This document shows positions 1 through 12,469 of a stretch of 12,469 nucleotides of DNA, in pieces. The DNA lies in the IMG/VR virus record IMGVR_UViG_2663763280_000001; one strand, 5' to 3'. The position numbers were made by a program, and so were the translations under genes. Numbering within the stretch: position 1 is the stretch's first letter; every line of letters begins with the position of its first letter. The notes beneath the pieces are model-generated. The model saw nothing but the letters and a program-made list of their open reading frames with translations. It did no database searches and had not been told where the DNA came from. Source of the DNA: a virus. Its lineage: Duplodnaviria > Heunggongvirae > Uroviricota > Caudoviricetes.

Positions 1-103
1 AGGTCTGATGGTGTTTGGTGTGGTGGATTTCCATGGTCTGCTTATCGAAGTGCGGTTCCAGGGCATCGTAAGCATACGGCAGGGATGGCAGGGTATAGCT
101 CAT
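1..103 (-). CDS. sodA: Mn superoxide dismutase, N-terminal 34 codons (partial; continues beyond window start)
   Basis: Minus-strand ATG at 103..101 preceded by GGAG at 113..110. Translation [34 protein letters not shown] matches the SodA N-terminus as I remember it, including the His-rich Fe/Mn-SOD motif. Confidence 0.85.
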
Positions 104-217
104 ATTCATCTCCAGTATTGTCGGGCGGCCGATTGTTAATGCCGCGTAAGCAGTTGGTTCATTATAGTTAATTAAATGATATTGAAAATGATTATCAATG
201 CCGTACTTTTCGTAAGG
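104..217 (-). promoter_or_regulatory. sodA 5' region: SD GGAG (113..110), -10 TATAAT (166..161), Fur-box-like AT-rich dyad (about 175..196)
   Basis: Minus strand reads ...GATAATCATTTTCAATATCATTTAATTAACTATAATGAACC...GGAGATGAATATG. The TATAAT and the GATAAT-rich dyad are seen directly; assigning them to the sodA promoter and Fur site is from memory. Confidence 0.6.
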
Positions 218-913
218 CACCTGCTGGCTGCCGAACTGTTCCGAGTCCACCTGCACGCCGACCAGTGCCGTGTTCGGGTAGCACTGTTTCACATCGATGA
301 TTTCGGTGTATGACGACCAGAGCGTTTTGTTCTGCAGCTGGTCTGTGGTGCTGTCCGGCGTCATTCTGCGCATCCGGATATTAAACGGGCGCGGCGGCAG
401 GTTATCCACCAACACCGAGGCCAGATACTGCGAGGTGGTTTTGCCCTTAATGGTGATGTCTTTTTCCGTCACCCAGCCACCATTACGCTGTATCTGAACC
501 AGCAGGCGAACTTCCGACGGATTCCAGTCCCCCTTTGAGGTGGTTTCCACCAGTGCCTGCACACCGAAGGTAAAGCGCAGTCGGTCGATGTTTGCCGACG
601 TGATGGCGCGGGTGATCGGCGTGTCGTATTTCACTTCCGTACCCAACACCGTCTCGGAGCCGGAGGATTCAAATCCCTCCGGCGGAGTCTGCTCCTGCTC
701 ACCAGCCCGGAACACCACCGTGACACCGGCGATGTTGGTATTCCCATCACTGTCCAGCACCGACGTACTGTTCAGCAGCACGCTTTTTAATCCATCCACC
801 GGACCTTCAATCGGCCCTTCACTGATGGCATCAATCACACTCAGCAACTGCGTGGACTTCAGGTTGTCCTTCGCTTCGCGCGGGGTATGCCCCTTACTGC
901 TTCCTTTACCCAT
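218..913 (-). pseudogene. J: Tail tip / central fibre protein J, N-terminal 232 codons only (lambda J is about 1132 aa)
   Basis: ATG at 913..911 with AGGA upstream. Translation [49 protein letters not shown]...QFGSQQV follows the lambda J N-terminus, then changes abruptly to sodA upstream sequence after codon 232. Confidence 0.85.
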
Positions 914-935
914 TCCTCACGCTCCATAAACGACA

Positions 936-955
936 AAACCGCCCGCAGGCGGTTT
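936..955 (-). terminator. Perfect 8-bp stem / 4-nt loop hairpin in the I-J intergenic spacer (AAACCGCC-xxxx-GGCGGTTT), U-rich 3' side on the minus strand
   Basis: Inverted repeat seen directly between the I stop (976..974) and the J start (913). Function not established. Confidence 0.3.
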
Positions 956-973
956 CACATAAAACATTTTGCA

Positions 974-1645
974 TCAGCGACCAATCACCACAACCTGACC
1001 ACCGTCCCCTTCGTCTGCCGTGCTGATCTCCTGAGAAACCACGCGTGACCCCACGCGCATTTCCCCGTACAGAACAGGCAGAACATTGCCCTGGGCAACC
1101 ATGTTATCCAGTGAGGAGAAATAGGTGTTCTGCTTACCGTTATCCGTTGTCTGTGTACGGGGAGTTCTGGCTTTCGGTGCCAGCATCTGCGCCACACCAC
1201 CGAGCACCATACTGGCACCGAGAGAAAACAGGATGCCGGTCATACCACCGGCCCCAATGGCTGCCCCCCATGCTGCAAGGGTGGCTCCGGCGGTAAAGAA
1301 TGATCCGGCAATGGCGGCAGCCCCCAGGACAATCTGGAATACGCCACCTGACTTGGCCCCGGCGACTCTGGGAACAATATGAATCACAGCGCCATCAGGC
1401 AGAGTCTCATGTAACTGCGCCGTTAACCCGGACGTGCTGACGTCCCGCCCGGCAATCCGTACCTGATACCAGCCGTCGCTCAGTTTCTGACGAAACGCCG
1501 GGAGCTGTGTGGCCAGTGCCCGGATGGCTTCAGCCCCCGTTTTCACACGAAGGTCGATGCGGCGACCAAATCGTTGTAAATCCCCGTAAAGGCAGATGCG
1601 CGCCATGCCCGGTGACGCCAGAGGGAGTGTGTGCGTCGCTGCCAT
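974..1645 (-). CDS. I: Tail tip assembly protein I (223 aa)
   Basis: ATG at 1645..1643, stop at 976..974; 223 aa as in lambda I; overlaps the K 3' end by 103 nt as in lambda. Confidence 0.92.
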   Translation of the reverse strand: MAATHTLPLASPGMARICLYGDLQRFGRRIDLRVKTGAEAIRALATQLPAFRQKLSDGWYQVRIAGRDVSTSGLTAQLHETLPDGAVIHIVPRVAGAKSGGVFQIVLGAAAIAGSFFTAGATLAAWGAAIGAGGMTGILFSLGASMVLGGVAQMLAPKARTPRTQTTDNGKQNTYFSSLDNMVAQGNVLPVLYGEMRVGSRVVSQEISTADEGDGGQVVVIGR

Positions 1646-2286
1646 TTGTCGGTGTACCTCTCTCGTTTGCTCAGTTGTTCAGGAATATGGTGCAGCAGCT
1701 CGCCGTCGCCGCAGTAAATTGCGGCGTGATTCGGCACCGATGAACCAAAACAGCACAGCAGCACATCGCCCGGCTGTGCCGCTGACAACGGCACCTGATA
1801 CAGCCCTGTGGCCTCCAGATTATCCAGATAGAGATTCTGGCCGTTACGCCACCAGTCATCCTCACGATGAAAGGCCGGCATCTCAATCCCCGCCAGATGA
1901 TAAGCATCCCGGAACAGTGTGTAACAGTCCGTCACACCGTGCTCAAAGCGCCGCCCGGTGAGATGCGGCACACAGCGGAACTTATGAATCGTCCCCCGGC
2001 AGACCAGCCACCACGGCAAATCACTCTGCACCTGCAGCCGCCGGTCGGCCTCACTCAGCCAGGGCAGACCACCGGGGTGGCTGTGGACCAGCGCCACAAT
2101 CTCACCCTGCATTTCTGCCTGCAGCCAGTCTTCCGGCGACATACGGAAATACGCCTCCGGCTCACCGGAGATATTCACGCAGGGGAAATATCTTTCCCCC
2201 TCCGGCGTGCTTACCACGAAGCCGCACGACTCCGCTGGCGCACATCGCCGGGCGTGCGCCAGAATCGCTGATTCTGTCTGTGTCAT
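1543..2286 (-). CDS. K: Tail tip assembly protein K, JAMM/MPN plus NlpC/P60-type. Open frame is 247 aa from the ATG at 2286; the canonical 199-aa lambda start corresponds to the ATG at 2142
   Basis: Frame is open from the ATG at 2286 (5 nt after the L stop) to the stop at 1545..1543. An internal ATG at 2142 has GGAGG 11 nt upstream. JAMM motif HSHPGGLPWLSEAD is seen directly. Confidence 0.85.
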   Translation of the reverse strand: MTQTESAILAHARRCAPAESCGFVVSTPEGERYFPCVNISGEPEAYFRMSPEDWLQAEMQGEIVALVHSHPGGLPWLSEADRRLQVQSDLPWWLVCRGTIHKFRCVPHLTGRRFEHGVTDCYTLFRDAYHLAGIEMPAFHREDDWWRNGQNLYLDNLEATGLYQVPLSAAQPGDVLLCCFGSSVPNHAAIYCGDGELLHHIPEQLSKRERYTDKWQRRTHSLWRHRAWRASAFTGIYNDLVAASTFV

Positions 2287-2291
2287 GGGAT

Positions 2292-2990
2292 TTACTGCGA
2301 AAGTTTGTTAATGGAAAGGAAGCCGCCAAAGTTGCCGACGTTATTGCGGAACTTACAACCGCTCAGGCATTTGCTGCATTTATCCTTCGTGATATCGGAC
2401 GTTGGCTGGTCATATTCATCCGCGACAGCCGGACCGCTATAACCGCACTCGTCACCGCGATAGGTCCAGGTGCAGGTGTTGGCCAGCATGATACGTCCCG
2501 GAAAAACAGCGCCATCCGTTTCCGTCGGCGTGGACAGTACAAAGGAGGCACTCACCGCGCTCAGTTCGCTGCACTGCTCAATGCGCCAGCGGCTGATCAC
2601 CTCCTGCTCCGGATCGGCGCCACTGTTTCCGTTGACGAAGTTCACCGCATCCAGAAAACGGGCGTAAACCTTACGCCGGACCACCGTTCCACCGACCAGA
2701 CTCTGCAGATCTTCCGCCATCCCGGTGACCATACCGTACAGGTTAGAAACCGTCAGTGTGGGGCGCGTACTGGTGCCTTTGCCATTCAGTTCAAAACCAC
2801 TCCCCTGAATGGGATACGGCTGATACTGTCGCCCCTGCCAGGTGACCGGCTCACCTTTTTCGTTCTGCTCATTACAGAAAAAATAACGTTCTCCACCGAC
2901 CTCTGTCAGGTCGATTTCCCAGAGCACCACGCTGGCCGACTGCTCCGCACGGGTGCATTCATTCAGTGTTTCCTGCCGGATATCCTGCAT
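2292..2990 (-). CDS. L: Minor tail protein L (232 aa)
   Basis: ATG at 2990..2988 overlaps the M stop (ATGA); stop TAA at 2294..2292; length and sequence as lambda L. Confidence 0.92.
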   Translation of the reverse strand: MQDIRQETLNECTRAEQSASVVLWEIDLTEVGGERYFFCNEQNEKGEPVTWQGRQYQPYPIQGSGFELNGKGTSTRPTLTVSNLYGMVTGMAEDLQSLVGGTVVRRKVYARFLDAVNFVNGNSGADPEQEVISRWRIEQCSELSAVSASFVLSTPTETDGAVFPGRIMLANTCTWTYRGDECGYSGPAVADEYDQPTSDITKDKCSKCLSGCKFRNNVGNFGGFLSINKLSQ

Positions 2991-3319
2991 CAGTTCACCA
3001 CCTGTTCAAACTCTGCGCTGAACTCAACACGCAGCATACTGACCCGCGACGACCATTTTGCGCAGGTCACCTTTATCTGCCGCCACTCATAAGGCGGCGT
3101 CCACAGAAAGGCTTTCCAGCCCCCGTGCTCTTCCAGAAACGACTCCAGTACCGTGGCCTCCTCACGGGGGACAGAAAGCGTCACGCTGTACGTTTTCAGG
3201 TTGGCATTCAGCCCGGCAGGCGCTCGCTGGGAATAGCCATCACCAAAGCGCACCTTTCTTACAGAAGGGGCCGAAGCCACATCCATACCGGGTTTCACTT
3301 TCCAGCGGAAGGTTTTCAT
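2990..3319 (-). CDS. M: Minor tail protein M (109 aa)
   Basis: ATG at 3319..3317 overlaps the H stop; 109 aa as lambda M. Confidence 0.92.
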   Translation of the reverse strand: MKTFRWKVKPGMDVASAPSVRKVRFGDGYSQRAPAGLNANLKTYSVTLSVPREEATVLESFLEEHGGWKAFLWTPPYEWRQIKVTCAKWSSRVSMLRVEFSAEFEQVVN

Positions 3320-5895
3320 CGTCCACCTCCGGAGAACAGACCACCATCGCGCATCTGTGCCTGGATTTCATCACGGGCACCCTTGCGGGCCATGTCATAC
3401 ACCGCCTTCATCATCTGTGGACCTGGCAGACCATTCGTACCGTCGTTCTGAATCACCACGTGATTGTTCTGATTAAAATTAATGCCTTCAGCCCGCCGCA
3501 TCTGCGCCGGACTTCCGGCACCGCCCACATAACCACCTTCCGCATAGCCCCGCATCAGGCGGTACAGGTTGCCGACACCAATCCGGCTGGTTGCCTCCTT
3601 CGTGAAGACAAATTCACCACGGTGAACAATCCCCGCTGGCTCATATTTGCCGCCGGTTCCCGTAAATCCCCCGGTCGCAAAATGGAATTTCGCCGCAGCG
3701 GCCTGAATGGCTGTACCGCCTGACGCGGATGCGCCGCCACCAACAGCCCCGCCAATGGCGCTGCCGATACTCCCGACAATCCCCACCATTGCCTGCTTAA
3801 GCAGAATTTCTGTCATCATGGACAGCACGGAGCGGGTGAAGCTGCGCCAGTTCTGTTCACTGCCGGTCAGCATCGCCGCCATATTCTGCGCAATACCATC
3901 AAAGGTCTGCGTGGCTGCACTTTTAACCTGCGACATACTGTCCGTGGCACTCTCTTTCCACTCGCTCCAGCCGGACCTGAGGCCTGCCATCCAGTTCCCG
4001 CGAAGCAGGTCTTCAGCCGCCCAGGTCTTTTTCTGCTCTGACATGACGTTATTCAGCGCCAGAGGATTATCGCCATACTGTTCCTTCAGGCGCTGTTCCG
4101 TGGCTTCCCGTTCTGCCTGCCGGTCAGTCAGCCCCCGGCTTTTCGCATCAATAGCGGCCCGTTTTGCCCGTTGCTGCTGTGCGAATTTATCCGCCTGCTG
4201 CGCCAGCGCGTTCAGGCGCTCCTGATACGTAACCTTGTCGCCAAGTGCAGCCAGCTGGCGTTTGTACTCCAGCGTCTCATCTTTATGCGCCAGCAGGGAT
4301 TTCTCCTGTGCAGACAGCTGGCGACGTTGCGCCGCCTCCTCCAGTACCGCGAACTGACTCTCCGCCTTCCACAAATCCCGGCGCTGCTGGCTGATTTTCT
4401 CATTTGCTCCGGCATGCTTCTCCAGCGTCCGGAGTTCTGCCTGAAGCGTCAGCAGGGCAGCATGAGCACTGTCTTCCTGACGATCGCCCGCAGACACCTT
4501 CACGCCGGACTGTTTCGGCTTTTTCAGCGTCGCTTCATAGTCCTTTTTCGCCGCCGCCATCAGCGTGTTGTAATCTGCCTGCAGAATTTTCCCGTCCTTC
4601 AGTGACTTGTTCAGTTCTTCCTGACGGGCGGTATATTTCTCCAGCGGCGTCTGCAGGCGTTCGTAAGCCTTCTGCGCCTCTTCGGTATATTTCAGCCGTG
4701 ATGCCTCAGACTCGGCCCAGTCCTTTGCTGCCATCTCTCTGGCCTTTTCAAGATCGGCCTGCAACGTGGCGGCTGAAAGCCCAAGTTGCGCATTCGCTCT
4801 CTTCTCCCATGCTCCCCGGAGATTGGCAAGAAATGCTGAGGTTTTACCGCGCCGGTGGCTCCGGCTCTGATACCACTGCCATTTTTTGTCCGCCTCATCA
4901 AAAGCCTTTTCTGCTTTCTCCAGCATTCCCTGGGCAGTGTCCGGGCGACCAATATCCAGCACCGAATCCCACATGGATTTGAATGCCCGTGCTGTCCTGT
5001 CTGCCCAGGTCTCCAGCGTGCCCATGTTCTCTTTCAGGCGGCGGGTCTGGTCATCAAACCCTTTCGTTGCGGCCTCGTTCGCCGCCTGCAATGCCCCGGC
5101 TTCATCTCCGGAACGCTGCAACTGAGCAACATACGCAATCTGCTCCGCCGTCACGTTATGGAACTGACGTGCCATCGCTGTCAGTCCCGACGTCGGGTCT
5201 GTGGTCAGCTTCCCGAAGGCTTCAGCGACCTTGTCCACCTCCACGCCGGATGCAGAGGAGAAACGCGCCACACTCTGGCTGATCGCCTCAAACTGCTCAC
5301 CACCACGCACACCGGCATTCACCAGCGCCGTCAGTGACTCGCTGGTCTGGTTAAACGTCAGCCCTGCCGCCTGCCCGGCTCTGGACAGGACCAGCATACG
5401 ATCTGCCGTCAGTCCCGCCTGATTGCCGGAAAGGACCAGCGTTTTGTTGAAATCGGACAGGGTTGAGTTGCCCTGATACCAGGCATACGCCAGCGCACCG
5501 GTCGCCACCGCCAGCGAGGTGGCCCCCACCATCGGCAGGGTGATCGCACCGGCAAGCCCCCTGAACATGGGGATCATCCCGCCGAAGGAGTCCTTAACCT
5601 GACCACCCTGTTGCAGCAGGATCAGCCACGGGCTTTGCCCGCCTGCAAGCTGCGTGGCCACGTCGGTGAACTGTGCAGGCAGCATACGCATGGCGGCTTT
5701 ATACTGCCCGACGGAAATCCCCGCTTTCTGTGCAGCCAGCGCCTGTCGGCTCAGCGACTGTTCAACGACTGCCGCTGTTTTTTTCGCATCAGTTTCCGTA
5801 CCGGAAAAATGACGCCTGACTCTGGCCATCTGCTCGTCAAATCTGGCCGCATCCAGACTTAAATCAACGACCAGATCGCCTACCGGTTCAGCCAT
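3316..5895 (-). CDS. H: Tail tape measure protein H (859 aa here)
   Basis: ATG at 5895..5893 overlaps the T stop by 8 nt as in lambda. Long, coiled-coil-rich ORF with a Gly-rich C-terminal region, starting MAEPVGDLVVDLSLDAARFDEQ. Confidence 0.92.
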   Translation of the reverse strand: MAEPVGDLVVDLSLDAARFDEQMARVRRHFSGTETDAKKTAAVVEQSLSRQALAAQKAGISVGQYKAAMRMLPAQFTDVATQLAGGQSPWLILLQQGGQVKDSFGGMIPMFRGLAGAITLPMVGATSLAVATGALAYAWYQGNSTLSDFNKTLVLSGNQAGLTADRMLVLSRAGQAAGLTFNQTSESLTALVNAGVRGGEQFEAISQSVARFSSASGVEVDKVAEAFGKLTTDPTSGLTAMARQFHNVTAEQIAYVAQLQRSGDEAGALQAANEAATKGFDDQTRRLKENMGTLETWADRTARAFKSMWDSVLDIGRPDTAQGMLEKAEKAFDEADKKWQWYQSRSHRRGKTSAFLANLRGAWEKRANAQLGLSAATLQADLEKAREMAAKDWAESEASRLKYTEEAQKAYERLQTPLEKYTARQEELNKSLKDGKILQADYNTLMAAAKKDYEATLKKPKQSGVKVSAGDRQEDSAHAALLTLQAELRTLEKHAGANEKISQQRRDLWKAESQFAVLEEAAQRRQLSAQEKSLLAHKDETLEYKRQLAALGDKVTYQERLNALAQQADKFAQQQRAKRAAIDAKSRGLTDRQAEREATEQRLKEQYGDNPLALNNVMSEQKKTWAAEDLLRGNWMAGLRSGWSEWKESATDSMSQVKSAATQTFDGIAQNMAAMLTGSEQNWRSFTRSVLSMMTEILLKQAMVGIVGSIGSAIGGAVGGGASASGGTAIQAAAAKFHFATGGFTGTGGKYEPAGIVHRGEFVFTKEATSRIGVGNLYRLMRGYAEGGYVGGAGSPAQMRRAEGINFNQNNHVVIQNDGTNGLPGPQMMKAVYDMARKGARDEIQAQMRDGGLFSGGGR

Positions 5896-6322
5896 ACCGG
5901 ACTCCTCCTGCGATCCCTTCTGATACTGTCATCAGCATTACGTCATCCTCCGTCATGTCCGCCACATCCGGGGAAGCGGGGATAACTTCATTCCCGTCCG
6001 GGCCAAAACGAACGCCTCCGGCAAGCCCTGCCGCTTTCTGCATCAGCACATCATCTTCAGGCTCTTCGTCAGCCTCGCGCCGGTTCAGCAGACTGAAATC
6101 CAGCGGATGCATCTCCGGATCGCTGAAAAACAGGCTGAGCACGGTGTACGTCAGCCCGGAAAAGTGCATATCCAGCAGAACATCATGAAAATAATGGGTA
6201 CTGTAAAAGCGGTGCCAGTCGGCATACTCCGTGGATGACATCCCGGCAAGCATGGCGCGCCAGTCGGGTCGCCCCATCTCACGCGCCAGTTTCAGGGCAA
6301 AACTCAGCTCACCGTCGAACAC
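5888..6322 (-). CDS. T: T segment of the G-T tail assembly chaperone, expressed only as a G-T fusion by -1 frameshift (no independent start)
   Basis: Open frame in the -1 frame relative to G, beginning at the slippery site and ending at TGA 5890..5888; product ...FDGELSFALKLAREMGRPDW... as lambda gpT. Confidence 0.85.
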   Translation of the reverse strand: MFDGELSFALKLAREMGRPDWRAMLAGMSSTEYADWHRFYSTHYFHDVLLDMHFSGLTYTVLSLFFSDPEMHPLDFSLLNRREADEEPEDDVLMQKAAGLAGGVRFGPDGNEVIPASPDVADMTEDDVMLMTVSEGIAGGVRYG

Positions 6323-6726
6323 TTTCCCGCAGAAACAGGCTCTGCAGGCCCGGCGTCCTCTGCCTGTTCAGGAGCATCATTCACCACAAACTCATACATA
6401 CCGGACAGCCGGTACACCACGTTTTCAGCATGAGAAATTGCCTCTGTGGGCCAGGTGGTAAGCACTTCCTGCTCAATCTGTTTAACGGCTTCATTCATGG
6501 AAGGCAGCTTTGTCTTCTTCGGATGGTTATGCCACAGGGACATCGCCACCAGAAACGCGCCGGTTCTGATGGCGTCTTCCACAGTAAACTTCCGGTTGCT
6601 GTCTGACTCCGCCTGTTCTGCCTGCCGTTTCATCAGGGCGAGATGCTCAATACGCTGCAGGGCTGACAGTTCAGAAAGCGTGACGGTCACACCGTTATGT
6701 TCAAATGATTCGGTTTTCAGGAACAT
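6304..6726 (-). CDS. G: Tail assembly chaperone G (140 aa)
   Basis: ATG at 6726..6724, stop TGA at 6306..6304; C-terminus ...PAEPVSAGKCSTVS as lambda gpG. Confidence 0.92.
   Translation of the reverse strand: MFLKTESFEHNGVTVTLSELSALQRIEHLALMKRQAEQAESDSNRKFTVEDAIRTGAFLVAMSLWHNHPKKTKLPSMNEAVKQIEQEVLTTWPTEAISHAENVVYRLSGMYEFVVNDAPEQAEDAGPAEPVSAGKCSTVS
6322..6328 (-). promoter_or_regulatory. Programmed -1 ribosomal frameshift slippery heptamer G GGA AAG joining G to T
   Basis: Minus-strand GGGAAAG at 6328..6322 sits at the Gly-Lys codons 6 codons before the G stop; the -1 frame continues into the T reading frame. Confidence 0.8.
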
Positions 6727-6741
6727 CGCTGACTCTCCGGA

Positions 6742-7482
6742 TTAACTGGCGGTGACGTTGATTTCTGCAACCGCAGCAAACTCACCATTACCGGATACGA
6801 CCGGAATGTTGACCTTGCCTGCAGCAACACCTTTCACGGTGATGGTCATACCACTGACCGACACGGTGGCTTTTGTTTTATCCGCAGACACCGCACGGAA
6901 GCTCTTGTCGGTTGCGCCATCCGGCTGGAATGCCACGGTCAGCGTGGTGCTCTGCCCTTTCACTACGGAAGCACTGGCGGGTGTCACCGTCATGCCGGTT
7001 GTCGCCGTCACCGTGCTGCGATCTTCTGCCATCGACGGACGTCCCACATTGGTGACCTTCACCGTGCGGGTAATCACTTCCTTCGCCGTCACCGCCTTAC
7101 CGATACTGCTGACCCAGCCACGGAACACATCGACCGTGCCGTTCGGGAAGCGGATTTTATAGGCACGGGTATCGCCTTCATTAAACCACGCCAGCAGCGC
7201 CTGCTGCCCCTGCTCTCCGGGCATCCACGCCAGCGTGAAGCTGGTATCTCCAGCAGATTTCTGCCCCTGCCCGGTCGCAGTCCAGTCTGCATCTTCATCA
7301 TCGAGATAGCTGTCGTCATAAGACTCAGCGGTCAGTTCGCCGGGCGTCAGGTCTTTAACTTTTGCCAGACGCGACCAGTCAACGTCTGAAAGCGGATTCG
7401 CATAAGGGTCACCACTCCCCTTATAAACCCACAGGGTGGTCCCGGCCCCTTTCACCGGCATTACAGGATTTGGTACAGGCAT
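6742..7482 (-). CDS. V: Major tail tube protein V (246 aa) with C-terminal Ig-like domain
   Basis: ATG at 7482..7480 with GAGGA upstream; starts MPVPNP...; C-terminal about 90 aa rich in T/V/S, consistent with an Ig-like fold. Confidence 0.92.
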
Positions 7483-7489
7483 AGCGTCC

Positions 7490-7885
7490 TCACATTTCAT
7501 AGGTAATGACATAAGTCAGATCGGCTGAACTCCACAGGCCCGCATCATCGTCGCGCCGATAGTCATAGCCGCTGGTCACCATACTGGTGATCAAATCTGA
7601 CAGTGCCGGGATATCACTCATCACCGGATAAATCCGGGACTCCATCCACGCATCCAGCTCTGAATCCGGCACCTGAGCAGGCAGGAAAACTTCAATATGC
7701 AGCTCCGCCTGCCAGGTATCGCTGTCCAGCTCTTCGCCCGTGTATTCAGCGCCGGTGAGATAAACGGCAATTGCCGGAAAATCTTCCTCATCAAAAACAG
7801 CGGGGCGACCATCAAAAAGCGTCGCCCCGGTGTCATGCTTCTCCAGTGCATCCAGTACGGCTGCTCGGAGTTCAGTATGTTTCAT
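7490..7885 (-). CDS. U: Tail tube terminator protein U (131 aa)
   Basis: ATG at 7885..7883 overlaps the Z stop (ATGA); 131 aa as lambda U. Confidence 0.92.
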
Positions 7886-8460
7886 CGCTTTATTACCATC
7901 CTCAGTTGATGCTGCAGCGCATAGCCCAGCTCTTTCGGAAGACGCTCACGCCGTATCCGCTCAATATTCTGTTTAAACGCCGTGGTCAGCGGCACCGCCA
8001 TCGGGATTTTCACCACATCAATGGGGTAACGATTTTTCCCGGCCACACGCTGCATGACATGCCAGCGGCCATTTTTCAGTTGCTGAATAAACGCGCCGGG
8101 AATACGACGGTTTCCCACCACAAGCACGCTGCCGCCACCTTTCAGGGCTGAACGCTGCCCCTTTTTACGACGCCTGCGTCGGGACAGGACAATCCGCGCG
8201 TTACCCAGCTTTATTACGGGCAAATCCCCCCGGTTAACCTTGATTCTGGCCTGCGGATTTTTGACCGTGGCCCTTTTCAGCCTGGCCCTTTCCTTTACCA
8301 GTTTCCGGCGTACCTTTGTCTCACGGGCAACCTGTGACGCCGACTGCGATATCGCGGATGAAGCAACGCGGTTAATGGCCATTGCGGCGGCACCGGGCAC
8401 CGCCGTTCTGCTGATACGGCTGAGGTTTTCAACGGCCTGCTCAAGACCTTTTATGGCCAT
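7882..8460 (-). CDS. Z: Tail completion protein Z (192 aa)
   Basis: ATG at 8460..8458; 192 aa; basic Arg/Lys-rich middle region as lambda Z. Confidence 0.92.
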   Translation of the reverse strand: MAIKGLEQAVENLSRISRTAVPGAAAMAINRVASSAISQSASQVARETKVRRKLVKERARLKRATVKNPQARIKVNRGDLPVIKLGNARIVLSRRRRRKKGQRSALKGGGSVLVVGNRRIPGAFIQQLKNGRWHVMQRVAGKNRYPIDVVKIPMAVPLTTAFKQNIERIRRERLPKELGYALQHQLRMVIKR

Positions 8461-8471
8461 ACATCCCCCTT

Positions 8472-8825
8472 TCAGCGGCGACGGTTAACGGCAGGCGGTA
8501 CGCCCCGCCCAAGCCAGAGATGACAGCTTCCGCCATCATCTGGCGAAATCCGGTCTATCCAGAAGTTTTCCTCACCGATGGTCAGCGTGTCGCCGCGCCG
8601 CAGCTGCCGCACATCATCAGTCCGGACAAACAGGGACGGGCTGGAGCCTTCAACGCGCACGCCCTGTCCGGCATAGCTGATATTTTCAGGGTCATCAAAA
8701 ACACCACGTATCACAGCACCGGACTGCTCACCGGATGTCATGGTGGCTGACGTTCCCATGTACCCGCGTATCGTTTCATCGGCGCGGGCAATGGCAGCAT
8801 CGAACAGGTTATCGAAATCAGCCAC
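8472..8825 (-). CDS. FII: Head-tail joining protein FII (117 aa)
   Basis: Start codon here is GTG (8825..8823) with GGGAGG 5 nt upstream; product MADFDNLFDAAIARADETIRGY... as lambda FII. Confidence 0.9.
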   Translation of the reverse strand: MADFDNLFDAAIARADETIRGYMGTSATMTSGEQSGAVIRGVFDDPENISYAGQGVRVEGSSPSLFVRTDDVRQLRRGDTLTIGEENFWIDRISPDDGGSCHLWLGRGVPPAVNRRR

Positions 8826-8836
8826 AGCGCCTCCCG

Positions 8837-9232
8837 TTATTGCATTCTGGCCAGGCCGCGCTCTGTCATTTCAGCTGCCACACCGGCAGAGACACGGAAC
8901 GCCGTTCCCGGCAGCACAAATGCCACAGGCTCATCCCGCGTGGCGTGAAGTGCATCAGTATGCAGCGTCACCAGTGCCACGACCGTGACCAGAGCAGCCG
9001 TATCAATCACGGTATCCGGCTGCGCTGATACCACCTCATTTTCATGTCCGGTCAGCGCATTTTCCGGGCTGACAGATGTGTCCTGACCGGCAGCGTCATC
9101 CGTGTCATCAAGCTCCTCTTCCAGCTCTGCCACACGGAGCACCAGTTCTTCTTTCGTCCCCGTCAGGCTGACATCACGGTTCAGTTGCTCACCCAGCACC
9201 TGAAGACGGGCAATCAGTTCATCTTTCGTCAT
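8837..9232 (-). CDS. FI: DNA-packaging / head completion protein FI (131 aa here)
   Basis: ATG at 9232..9230 preceded by GGAGGAG; product MTKDELIARL... ending ...EMTERGLARMQ. Confidence 0.9.
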   Translation of the reverse strand: MTKDELIARLQVLGEQLNRDVSLTGTKEELVLRVAELEEELDDTDDAAGQDTSVSPENALTGHENEVVSAQPDTVIDTAALVTVVALVTLHTDALHATRDEPVAFVLPGTAFRVSAGVAAEMTERGLARMQ

Positions 9233-9253
9233 GGACTCCTCCACAGAGAGAAA

Positions 9254-9271
9254 ATGGCCCCGAAGGGCCAT
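9254..9271 (-). terminator. Terminator-like hairpin between E and FI: 7-bp stem ATGGCCC/GGGCCAT with UUCG tetraloop, followed by UUUCUCUCU
   Basis: Minus strand reads TAA-TC-ATGGCCC-TTCG-GGGCCAT-TTTCTCTCTG-TGGAGGAG-TCC-ATG; seen directly in the 41-nt spacer. Confidence 0.4.
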
Positions 9272-9273
9272 GA

Positions 9274-10299
9274 TTACGCCAGTTGTACGGACACGAACGC
9301 ATCAGGGTCAGCCAGCAGCATCAGCGGTGCTGACTGAATCATGGTGAACTCACGCGCCGGATCGCCGGTGGTCACCCAGTTTTTCGGGTAGCGGGCAGAG
9401 GCGTTAATACCTTCGCGCTGTGCGTCCGCATCCTGAATGCAGCCATAGGTGCGCAGACCGCGTGCCTGAGTGTTCCCCAGCACCATCGTGTTGTCCGGCA
9501 GGAAGTTCTTTTTGACGTCGTTTTCCACGTACTGTCCGGAATACACGACGATCGCCGTATCGCCATACATCCCCTTATAGGACACCGCTTCGCCCAGGTC
9601 TTTTACCGCTGTCTCCAGCTCGGAATTAGAGCCGCGACGGGTATCCAGCTTCTCCTTGACGGCTTTGAAGGAACGGAACAGCGCCCAGCCTTTCGGATCA
9701 AACACGATGATATTCACCACACCGCTGGCGTTCAGCGCGTAGGCTTCGATATCGTCGGTCGGGTCATACGTGGACTTGTCACGCTTGCTCCACTCCGTAC
9801 CGCCGGACTGTGTGATGTTGTTCGCCGCACTGCGGCCCATATCCACCTCAACCGGATCGAAGGCTTCACCGGTCATGGTGTATTTGCCCTTAAGCACAGC
9901 AGAAACTGCCTGCATCTCTTCGACCTGAGCAATGGCCAGCTCTTCGTCTCGCATGTTCTGCATGATGATGCGACGGCGGCGGTAAGCCGGGTCCGCCAGA
10001 TTCTGCGGATCTTCATCCGGCAGGCGACGCAGGGTCATCTGCGGATTCACCTCATGCTTGGGTTTGACATATCCCGGCGTAAATTCAGAGGTGGAGCCGC
10101 CACGGGAACGGATAACCTCACCGGAAACAATCGGCGAAACGTACAGCGCCATGTTTACCAGTCCCGGAATTTGTGAGAGATAGACTTTCTCCGTGGTGAA
10201 GGGATAGCTCTCACGGAAAAAGAGACGCAGAAACAGCGGATCAAACTTAAATTTCTGCTCATTTGCCGCCAGCAGCTGGGCGGTTGTGTACATCGACAT
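9274..10299 (-). CDS. E: Major capsid protein E (341 aa)
   Basis: ATG at 10299..10297 (MSMYTTAQLLAANEQKFKFDP...), stop TAA at 9276..9274; 341 aa as lambda gpE. Confidence 0.93.
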   Translation of the reverse strand: MSMYTTAQLLAANEQKFKFDPLFLRLFFRESYPFTTEKVYLSQIPGLVNMALYVSPIVSGEVIRSRGGSTSEFTPGYVKPKHEVNPQMTLRRLPDEDPQNLADPAYRRRRIIMQNMRDEELAIAQVEEMQAVSAVLKGKYTMTGEAFDPVEVDMGRSAANNITQSGGTEWSKRDKSTYDPTDDIEAYALNASGVVNIIVFDPKGWALFRSFKAVKEKLDTRRGSNSELETAVKDLGEAVSYKGMYGDTAIVVYSGQYVENDVKKNFLPDNTMVLGNTQARGLRTYGCIQDADAQREGINASARYPKNWVTTGDPAREFTMIQSAPLMLLADPDAFVSVQLA

Positions 10300-10312
10300 A
10301 AAAAAATCCCGT

Positions 10313-10337
10313 AAAAAAAGCCGCACAGGCGGCCTTT
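10313..10337 (-). terminator. Intrinsic-terminator-like element between D and E: GC hairpin (GCCGC-CTGT-GCGGC) followed by T7
   Basis: Minus strand reads ...AAAGGCCGCCTGTGCGGCTTTTTTTACGGGATTTTTTTATATG(E); stem-loop plus U-tract seen directly. Confidence 0.4.
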
Positions 10338-10354
10338 AGTGATGAAGGGTAAGG

Positions 10355-10687
10355 TTAAACGATGCTGATTGCCGTTCCGGCAAACGCGGTCCGTTTTTTC
10401 GTCTCGTCGCTGGCAGCCTCCGGCCAGAGCACATCCTCATAACGGAACGTGCCGGACTTGTAGAACGTCAGCGTGGTGCTGGTCTGGTCAGCATCAACCG
10501 CCAGAATGCCAACGGCAGTACCGTCGGTGGTGCCATCCCACGCAACCAGCTTACGGGTGGAGGTGTCCAGCATCAGCGGGGTCATTGCAGGCGCTTTCGC
10601 ACTCAATCCGCCGGGCGCGGTTGCCGTATGTGCCGGGTCACTGTTGCCCAGCGGCTGGTAATGGGTAAAGGTTTCTTTGCTCGTCAT
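10355..10687 (-). CDS. D: Capsid decoration protein D (110 aa)
   Basis: ATG at 10687..10685 ([27 protein letters not shown]...), stop TAA at 10357..10355. Confidence 0.93.
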
Positions 10688-10696
10688 AAACATCCC

Positions 10697-11302
10697 TTAC
10701 ACTGGTGTGTTCAGCAAATCGTTAACGGCATCAGATGCCGGGTTACCTGCAGCCAGTGGTGCCGGTGCCCCCTGCATCAGACGATCCAGCGCAGTGTCAC
10801 TGCGCGCCTGTGCACTCTGTGGTGCAGCTGCCAGAATGCGGCGGGCCGTTTCCACGGTCATACCGGGGGTTTCGGCCAGCACACGTGCCTGTTCTTCGCG
10901 TCCGTGAGCTTCCTCACAGTTGAGGATCCCCATAATGCGGCTGTTTTCTGCCGCAACCGCAGCGGTGATCTGCGCGTTCACGTCCGGCTGCGCCGCGCTG
11001 GCGTTTTCGCCCTCCGTCGCTTGCACCACGTCAGTAACGTCAGCCTGCGAAGCAGTGGCTGAAACAGTTGTTGATTGAGTCTCTTTGGTCATTCGCCCTC
11101 CTGAGAGACGGGATTTACGTGCATCCAGTGCATCACGCATAACGGTGATCGCATCGGTGCTGTTGACAAGTTCATCAGCCAGTCCGGCATCAATGGCCTC
11201 CTGACCGCTGTACATTGCAGCCTCGGTATCCAGCACAGCCTGCACGGACAGGCCGGTATATGCCGACACCTTCTGCGCAAACATCCGGCGGGTTGCATCC
11301 AT
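10697..11302 (-). CDS. Nu3: Capsid scaffolding protein Nu3, in-frame internal start within C (C codon 239), co-terminal with C
   Basis: Internal ATG at 11302..11300 (MDATRRMFAQKV...) in the C frame, giving 201 aa; the nested arrangement is known for lambda. Confidence 0.75.
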   Translation of the reverse strand: MDATRRMFAQKVSAYTGLSVQAVLDTEAAMYSGQEAIDAGLADELVNSTDAITVMRDALDARKSRLSGGRMTKETQSTTVSATASQADVTDVVQATEGENASAAQPDVNAQITAAVAAENSRIMGILNCEEAHGREEQARVLAETPGMTVETARRILAAAPQSAQARSDTALDRLMQGAPAPLAAGNPASDAVNDLLNTPV

Positions 11303-12016
11303 CCGGGACTGCAGTGTCTCCCGGACATCACCCGGTAGATGGCTGTAGGGGTTGCCATCCACCTTATGGCTGCCGCTGTAAATCAGCGTGATTTCCACGC
11401 CCTGTTTCTCCAGCGCAGCGCCGTAATTACTGTGAGCCATCATGACGCCGATGGAGCCTGTCCGGGCGGTCTGCGTGACCAGACGCCGGGAGGCGGCGCT
11501 GGCAAGCAGCTGACCTGCACTGCAGTTCATGTCGTTGGCCAGCGCCCATACCGGCTTTATGTCACGCACACGGGCGATGATGTCAGCACAGTCAAATGCT
11601 CCCGCCACCATCCCGCCCGGTGTGTCCATATCGAGCAGAATGCCGTCCACCATCGGATCGCTGGCAGCCTGTTGCAGACGAGCGATAATGCCGTTGTAAC
11701 CGGTCATTCCCGAATACGGCTGCAGCGCCCGCGTCCGGCTGACCAGCGTACCGGACACCGGCAGCACGGCGATGCCGTTCATGACCTGATAACTGCGGGC
11801 CTGTCGTGGTCCGTCATCATCACCGGATAACGCCAGCGCCGCGGGTGCCTCTCCGGCAGTCAGGCTATCGCCGGATACTGCATCCGTCAGGCGACTGATC
11901 CCAAGCTGGCCTGCAAGCGCACAAAAGAAAACCCGCGCATAGGCGGGTTCAAGCATCAGCGGCTCATTAAAAGCCATGCTGGCAATATGCGGGAGATTAC
12001 GCAGCTCTGCTGTCAC
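10697..12016 (-). CDS. C: Capsid assembly protease / minor capsid protein C, S49 (SppA-like) family (439 aa)
   Basis: GTG start at 12016..12014 with GGAGGAG upstream, overlapping the end of B by 20 nt as in lambda; product MTAELRNLPHIASMAFNEPLMLEP... Confidence 0.9.
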   Translation of the reverse strand: MTAELRNLPHIASMAFNEPLMLEPAYARVFFCALAGQLGISRLTDAVSGDSLTAGEAPAALALSGDDDGPRQARSYQVMNGIAVLPVSGTLVSRTRALQPYSGMTGYNGIIARLQQAASDPMVDGILLDMDTPGGMVAGAFDCADIIARVRDIKPVWALANDMNCSAGQLLASAASRRLVTQTARTGSIGVMMAHSNYGAALEKQGVEITLIYSGSHKVDGNPYSHLPGDVRETLQSRMDATRRMFAQKVSAYTGLSVQAVLDTEAAMYSGQEAIDAGLADELVNSTDAITVMRDALDARKSRLSGGRMTKETQSTTVSATASQADVTDVVQATEGENASAAQPDVNAQITAAVAAENSRIMGILNCEEAHGREEQARVLAETPGMTVETARRILAAAPQSAQARSDTALDRLMQGAPAPLAAGNPASDAVNDLLNTPV

Positions 12017-12209
12017 TCTTCTCCTCCTCTGTTGATTGTCGCAGTCCGGATTCAAATGCCGCAGCCGCCCAGGCGGGCGGTTTAAGACCGGCTGCACGGC
12101 GCTCCATCGTTTCACGGACCTGCTGGGCAAAAATTTCCTGATAGTCGTCACCGCGTTTCGCGCACTCTTTCTCGTAGGTGCTCAGTCCGGCTTCTATCAG
12201 CATCACAGC
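11997..12209 (-). pseudogene. B: Portal protein B, C-terminal ~71 codons only; 5' part of the gene replaced by unrelated DNA
   Basis: ...AVMLIEAGLSTYEKECAKRGDDYQEIFAQQVRETMERRAAGLKPPAWAAAAFESGLRQSTEEEKSDSRAA-stop matches the lambda portal C-terminus as I remember it. Upstream the frame loses resemblance and hits an in-frame TGA (12395..12393). Confidence 0.8.
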
Positions 12210-12469
12210 AACAAAGTCACGCTTAAAACACAGGAGCATCTCGATCGCTGCCTCACTTGCCGCAATTGTGAAACCACCTGTCCTTCTGGTGTGCGCTATC
12301 ACAATTTGCTGGATATCGGGCGTGATATTGTCGAGCAGAAAGTGAAACGCCCACTGCCGGAGCGAATGCTGCGCGAAGGATTGCCAGATCTTTCAGGGTC
12401 GCCAGCGCGCCATGTTCTGCCATCTGCCGTTATCTCCTGGGTTATGACACTGTCGGGAAAATACGCTCC
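12210..12469 (+). pseudogene. glcF: Internal fragment of a GlcF-like (glycolate oxidase Fe-S subunit family) gene; no start in view, runs off the window end
   Basis: Plus-strand frame reads NKVTLKTQEHLDRCLTCRNCETTCPSGVRYHNLLDIGRDIVEQKVKRPLPERMLREG..., with a canonical 4Fe-4S C-x2-C-x2-C-x3-C-P motif at 12249..12284. Assignment to glcF is from memory, not a search. Confidence 0.55.

Follow-up and report, generated by a model that had tools for sequence, protein, structure and literature searches.

When a lambda-like prophage module breaks off inside its portal gene and the adjoining DNA codes, on the opposite strand, for part of a cellular Fe-S protein, does the breakpoint record an event in a bacterial genome, or did it arise in the making of the sequence? 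At face value, such a junction would imply an unusual route of prophage decay in which fragments of host genes are captured. We analyzed this question in the window, i.e., the whole stretch of 12,469 bp in which a first-pass annotation had noticed the breakpoint.

Identity and composition of the contig

The whole window corresponds to record CCCB01000120.1 (12,469 bp) of the draft E. coli assembly GCA_000945835.1. We take it as a complete contig because a chimeric 56-aa ORF near its right end is placed solely on this record, which has the same length as the window. Since the draft is fragmented and the window makes up one entire contig of it, both ends of the window are contig ends. Over positions 2253–12469, a stretch that covers both right-hand junctions, record and window are the same except for four bases. 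A literature search found no publication on assembly GCA_000945835.1.

To resolve the blocks of the contig, we compared it by megablast with 5,426 complete E. coli genomes and then checked it base by base against fetched references. Both steps together gave four blocks and three junctions (Table 1). Non-phage DNA is confined to the outermost 217 bp at the left end and the outermost 260 bp at the right end. The host scraps measure 88–217 bp each, i.e., the size of a read or insert, and are found at the contig termini only. The host loci sodA, glcF and fliIJ lie at 4.66 Mb, 4.02 Mb and 2.67 Mb, respectively, of a reference chromosome and are hence 0.6–2.0 Mb apart; almost all of the 5,426 E. coli genomes have each of them once.

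Table 1 Blocks, gene parts and junctions resolved in the contig
Feature	Position	Strand	Evidence
sodA-locus scrap	1..217	-	megablast, base-by-base comparison, Pfam; runs off contig end
Lambda-like prophage morphogenesis module, internal 11,992-bp piece	218..12209	-	JNEC-KY180 match, Pfam
J 5' part, codons 1-232 of 1159	218..913	-	match to intact J residues (99.1%), Pfam FNIII-A_GpJ
Portal gene (lambda B type) 3' end, codons 464-533 and stop	11997..12209	-	identity to JNEC-KY180 portal
Junction 1, portal/glcF, 7-bp zone	12207..12213		record-window comparison
glcF internal 177-bp scrap, nt 182-358	12208..12384	+	176/177 bases match E. coli glcF
Junction 2, glcF/fliJ, shared TGC	12382..12384		base-by-base comparison
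fliI end, spacer and fliJ start, 88 bp	12382..12469	-	100% identity; runs off contig end
Chimeric 56-aa ORF, fliJ start into antisense glcF	12253..12423	-	ORF list, protein-collection search

The phage core

The phage block is a single collinear match to an intact prophage of E. coli JNEC-KY180, with 4 base differences in 11,992 bp when the N at 12207 (see below) is set aside. On the minus strand, its genes are ordered J', I, K, L, M, H, T, G, V, U, Z, FII, FI, E, D, C/Nu3 and portal'. Among named phages, phiSTEC1575-Stx2k, 2H10, ev243 and PhiR63_1 come closest. In these phages and in the JNEC-KY180 prophage, the segment from J to the portal gene is 98.4–100% identical to the core and collinear with it, with the same gene order and the same Pfam families. 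Beyond the segment, these intact prophages and phages complete the portal gene and go on to W, terminase, Nu1 and cos on the one side, and complete J and go on to lom and the tail fibre genes on the other; JNEC-KY180 has a portal of 533 aa and a J of 1159 aa as well as terminase and Nu1. The contig analyzed here, in contrast, stops at portal codon 464 and at J codon 232.

The intact module with full-length portal and J genes is present in many genomes, and up to 6 copies of the module occur per genome. In the complete E. coli genome GCA_003018815.1 (CP027355.1) it is found twice, at 2.65 Mb and at 0.98 Mb, with identical major tail proteins. The core proteins of our contig are common alleles, each of them occurring on 392 to >1000 contigs. 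The phage core is an ordinary lambda-like prophage stretch, and the joins are the sole unusual element of the contig.

The portal remnant and its junction with glcF

Upstream from its stop codon at 11997–11999 on the minus strand, the portal gene matches intact portal genes up to 12206–12209. This limit is the same in E. coli genomes and in phage records, where all 90 matching records end at this point and none runs past it, in agreement with the first-pass annotation, which had followed the portal frame to about 12209. When we searched the window by tblastn with the intact 533-aa portal, residues 464–533 at 12209–12000 were the sole match (100%, JNEC-KY180); residues 1–463 were found in none of the six frames, and no alignment went on beyond 12210 in any frame. 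At the DNA level, the retained part and annotated portal genes share 99.7% identity. The 70-aa remnant gave no Pfam match, the intact relatives having PF05136 (Phage_portal_2) in their 533-aa product. The contig thus holds neither a complete portal domain nor a full-length portal gene with a start codon.

We considered whether lambdoid prophages have a natural mosaic boundary at this breakpoint. This was ruled out, as 3,233 records run through the region of portal and protease genes without a break at this point.

Beyond the breakpoint, the portal frame had been reported to change to a stretch MLLCFKRDFV without resemblance to a portal and then to hit an in-frame TGA at 12395–12393. The TGA is present, and there is no portal match beyond 12209; some of the bases behind the residues around KRDFVAV, however, are given as N in the public record. 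In this record, positions 12207–12213 read N G C N N C N, and the window has an A for each N. The Ns at 12207, 12210, 12211 and 12213 are exactly the positions at which the portal sequence (C, T, T and C) and the glcF sequence (G, A, A and G) mismatch, and the three positions of the zone at which both sequences agree (G, C and C) are called normally. Because an N stands at every portal/glcF-discordant base and at no concordant base, junction 1 can be read as the consensus of two read populations. We regard this as direct evidence, in the deposited bases themselves, that the consensus at junction 1 mixes portal-continuing with glcF-upstream reads and does not describe one molecule, from which definite bases would be expected. 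The comparison with the record spans junctions 1 and 2; a mixed consensus of this kind was seen at junction 1 only, and junction 2 is free of N. From the base-by-base comparison, the overlap of both sources at junction 1 is ≤2 bp.

Two apparent sequence features of the joint were discarded, i.e., an untemplated A at 12207 and a Glu-to-Lys change in GlcF at 12213, since both bases are N in the record. Two ORFs of 101 aa and 80 aa, respectively, contain the portal remnant, and a look-up in protein records found no entry for either. Probably, the entries are lacking because the Ns of the record would put X residues into the products.

The four N-to-A differences, to which positions 412 and 526 may possibly be added, could also suggest that the window was spliced or edited after deposition, either as a synthetic decoy or by a data-handling error. 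The public record, however, is of equal size and itself carries junctions 1 and 2, and its sequence over the compared stretch departs from the window at nothing but the four Ns. For junctions 1 and 2, an origin after deposition is hence excluded, and for the joins as a whole it is scarcely credible. The N-to-A substitution is the only handling effect.

The glcF and fliI-fliJ pieces at the right end

On the plus strand, the DNA from 12208 encodes LDRCLTCRNCETTCPSGVRYHNLLDIGRDIVEQ, and this is E. coli glcF itself (99.4% identity), the lone mismatch being position 12213, where the N of the record is shown as A. To the right of 12210, the match is thus a cellular gene and not a phage gene. The piece covers residues about 61–120 of the 407 residues of the glycolate oxidase Fe-S subunit, which is encoded by a gene of 1,224 nt, and its translation is the same as GlcF residues 62–119. 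The ferredoxin motif noticed earlier on this strand is the second CxxCxxCxxxCP motif of authentic GlcF, at residues 75–86; the first motif is absent, and a Pfam search of the piece gave weak Fer4-type matches. A complete glcF comprises 407 codons with two CxxCxxCxxxCP motifs and is part of the glcDEFGB operon. Here, neither end of the gene is present, and the neighbors of the piece are the portal remnant and fliJ, not glcE or glcG.

The first-pass annotation had let the glcF fragment extend to 12469 and point toward the phage block. Both statements need correction. The fragment ends after only 177 bp at 12384, and a second junction at 12382–12384 had been missed; moreover, with its 5' end at 12208 and its 3' end at 12384, the fragment reads away from the phage block.

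From the contig end inward, positions 12469–12442 are the last 28 nt of fliI, followed by the intergenic spacer and by fliJ codons 1–14 at 12423–12382. In the megablast comparison with the 5,426 complete E. coli genomes, this scrap was 100% identical and single copy in 5,186 of them. At the protein level, FliJ residues 1–14 and FliI residues 450–457 match at 100%. The trinucleotide TGC is common to the glcF and fliJ sources and makes a 3-bp overlap at junction 2.

The chimeric ORF of 56 aa begins with the genuine fliJ start and 14 fliJ codons and continues in antisense glcF. It was found on one contig among 153 billion gene positions, and among about 15 billion proteins it forms a cluster of its own, with no other member. 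The ORF has already entered the protein collection, i.e., as a spurious protein made by a chimeric contig.

The sodA piece at the left end

The left end of the contig holds sodA codons 1–34 at 103–2 and 114 bp of the sodA upstream region at 104–217, both on the minus strand and with 0 mismatches in the base-by-base comparison. The scrap is 100% identical in 5,425 of the 5,426 E. coli genomes, with a median of 1 copy per genome. SodA residues 1–34 match at 100%, and Pfam assigns them to Sod_Fe_N. At junction 0 (sodA/J, 217|218), both sequences meet with an overlap of 0 bp and without filler.

The J' frame (232 codons) remains open across 217|218 and through the sodA upstream region into the sodA frame, which adds up to 304 codons to the contig end. 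In the sodA upstream region, sodA's own frame alone lacks stops. We rejected the open J'-sodA frame as meaningful, as by a simple reckoning its chance is roughly 0.06 (about 1 in 15).

Occurrence of the junctions in other genomes

By megablast, none of the three junctions was found in the 5,426 complete E. coli genomes or in phage records. Searches with exact junction patterns gave no match for junction 1 in IMG/VR, GTDB representatives and JGI metagenomes, for junction 2 in GTDB representatives, and for junction 0 in JGI metagenomes.

The first-pass annotation had described a phage module without the N-terminal part of the portal and without terminase, Nu1 and cos, which has part of a metabolic gene as its neighbor on this side. 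As a statement on the string of letters this is true: only the last 70 portal codons are there, and a fragment of a cellular Fe-S gene abuts them on the opposite strand. It would be a statement on a genome if the contig were part of a cryptic prophage that had lost its packaging genes by deletion and had come to lie beside a disrupted glcF. Such a prophage would be consistent with a contig that has nothing upstream of portal codon 464 and with adjoining DNA that is authentic glcF. The K-12 cryptic prophages Rac, DLP12, Qin and e14 also have partial lambdoid gene sets without packaging functions, as found here. True cryptic remnants, however, have a continuous chromosomal context, are common to related strains and show sequence decay. 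Unlike these, the block analyzed here is identical to prophages that look functional, and scraps of three loci border it. It is embedded not in a continuous host chromosome but in pieces of 217, 177 and 88 bp: the internal 177 bp of glcF are followed at once by fliJ/fliI, with no further DNA of the glc operon, and the same kind of scrap, from sodA, is found at the opposite end. We looked for an IS element, an att site or a repeat at the joints, and none was there. Furthermore, 0 of the 5,426 complete genomes have a portal gene truncated at this point beside glcF, and the junction was found neither in related strains nor in independent assemblies. A cryptic prophage is hence a most improbable source of the contig. 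For a genomic phage module with a lost left end and a metabolic-gene flank there is no support, given the scraps at the contig ends and the ambiguous bases at the junction.

The overlaps at the three junctions are 0, ≤2 and 3 bp, which corresponds to P = 0.08–0.32 under random joining. A ligation at restriction sites (GATC) was ruled out as origin of the joins, as there is no such site at junctions 0 and 1; the AGATCT near junction 2 sits inside fliJ sequence and off the joint.

Short overlaps could also point to a patchwork that was made in vivo. A double-strand break in a prophage would then have been healed by RecBCD/LigA-dependent alternative end-joining or by other illegitimate recombination, with pieces of glcF, fliIJ and sodA captured as filler and a phage remnant of 12 kb left behind. 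The microhomologies of 3 bp at junction 2 and of up to 2 bp at junction 1 would be in line with this, and every piece is E. coli DNA with 99–100% identity. Moreover, alternative end-joining and illegitimate recombination in E. coli join unrelated sequences that share 0–3 bases, without a mobile element, as is the case here. End-joining in E. coli is described in a preprint that builds on the model of Chayot et al. (bioRxiv 10.1101/605246) as using microhomologies of 1–9 nt (observed 1–3 nt) at an efficiency of ~1e-5, with products that are typically deletions at one break. Unlike such products, the contig combines one blunt junction with three distant loci, its pieces end together with the contig, and bases at a joint are ambiguous. 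Junction 0 is without microhomology, and the total over all junctions is not above chance. A real locus would run on, yet the contig ends 217 bp and 88 bp into single-copy genes. At junction 1, the record bases are a mix of both parental sequences. Three captures from loci that are megabases apart, all within 12 kb, would be unprecedented, and the junctions are absent from all relatives. We consider a patchwork of this kind very unlikely. If it were true, it would amount, in a natural E. coli strain, to a bacterial version of the inserts, templated or captured, that are known from eukaryotic sites of break repair.

Origin of the joins

From the sequence comparisons we conclude that the portal/glcF breakpoint is very probably a sequencing or assembly artefact and nothing that is present in the bacterial chromosome. 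What the contig shows is in line with chimeric ends and not with a degraded prophage. The foreign pieces (1–217 and 12208–12469) are terminal, and at one of the joins, i.e., junction 1, the consensus appears mixed from both parental sequences. An artefact is further suggested because the contig stops 217 bp and 88 bp into unique sequence, which is expected only if the true loci own those reads, because the phage core cannot be told apart from intact prophages, and because the junction overlaps are at the level of random joining.

Misjoined ends of draft contigs resemble the present case in many respects. As with such ends, the unrelated single-copy scraps, here of 88–217 bp, have the size of a read or insert and are found at the termini only, the overlaps are trivial, one join is ambiguous, the structure is unique to one assembly, and the core ends in genes typical of multi-copy prophage repeats. 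They differ in that there is usually a single chimeric tip, whereas here we found three joins, two of them 177 bp apart. Three chimeric joins in one contig are indeed many for a well-behaved assembler, and this speaks against an artefact, as does the fact that junctions 0 and 2 are clean. Also, the Ns at junction 1 could stem from the polishing of a real but duplicated junction.

An artefactual origin could be pictured as follows. Short-read assemblies break in the J and portal genes because the module is repeated, twice in GCA_003018815.1 and up to 6 times in a genome. With near-identical copies of the module in one genome, the assembler would have halted within J and within the portal gene, and from each of these points the contig would then have grown by short pieces of unrelated single-copy genes, i.e., by 217 bp of sodA on the one side and by 260 bp of glcF, then fliJ/fliI, on the other. 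For the laboratory or software step that made the joins, we infer two possible routes. Small DNA debris may have been ligated to fragment ends, producing chimeric library molecules that were used for contig extension. Alternatively, the assembler, a gap-closer or the consensus step may have merged ends on trivial overlaps of 0–3 bases. At the portal/glcF joint, portal-continuing reads and glcF-upstream reads would have been piled together, giving rise to the ambiguous bases. Intact portal, J, glcF, sodA and fliIJ would be expected on other contigs of GCA_000945835.1, the one direct hint of this being the four ambiguous bases.

Reading the joins as chimeric keeps the junction out of catalogues of prophage rearrangements, and joins of this type add spurious chimeric proteins to databases. 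For genome scans, the contig is a warning to check whether a window makes up an entire contig, whether odd junctions lie less than a read length from the contig ends, and whether ambiguous bases of the source record were silently replaced.

Minor features of the phage core

Three single positions of the core deviate from the fetched references. At 7252, both the window and the public record have A, against G in each of the 11 related prophage sequences that were fetched. The change is taken as synonymous because the encoded major tail protein is a very common allele; a private SNP may lie behind it, or an error in the consensus. At 412 and 526, the window has A, and the references have C (all 10) and G (all 6), respectively. 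Both positions give the sole two amino-acid differences in J codons 1–232. They may be further N-to-A substitutions, the comparison with the record covering 2253–12469.

A heptamer GGGAAAG is found at 6322–6328 on the minus strand, at the overlap of the G-like (6304–6726) and T-like (5888–6322) tail chaperone ORFs. The G/T slippery heptamer is common to the window, the JNEC-KY180 prophage and the four named phages, and its place is that of the programmed -1 frameshift site for gpG/gpGT in lambda. The count of the motif in the window is not above chance.

For the S49 protease/scaffold gene, the ORF list has a GTG-started ORF of 484 aa at 10697–12151 on the minus strand. We rejected this version, as its extra 45 codons are a mere upstream open frame. 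The annotated and called S49 protease gene has 439 aa and starts at 12016, where it overlaps the portal stop by 20 nt, as do B and C in lambda.
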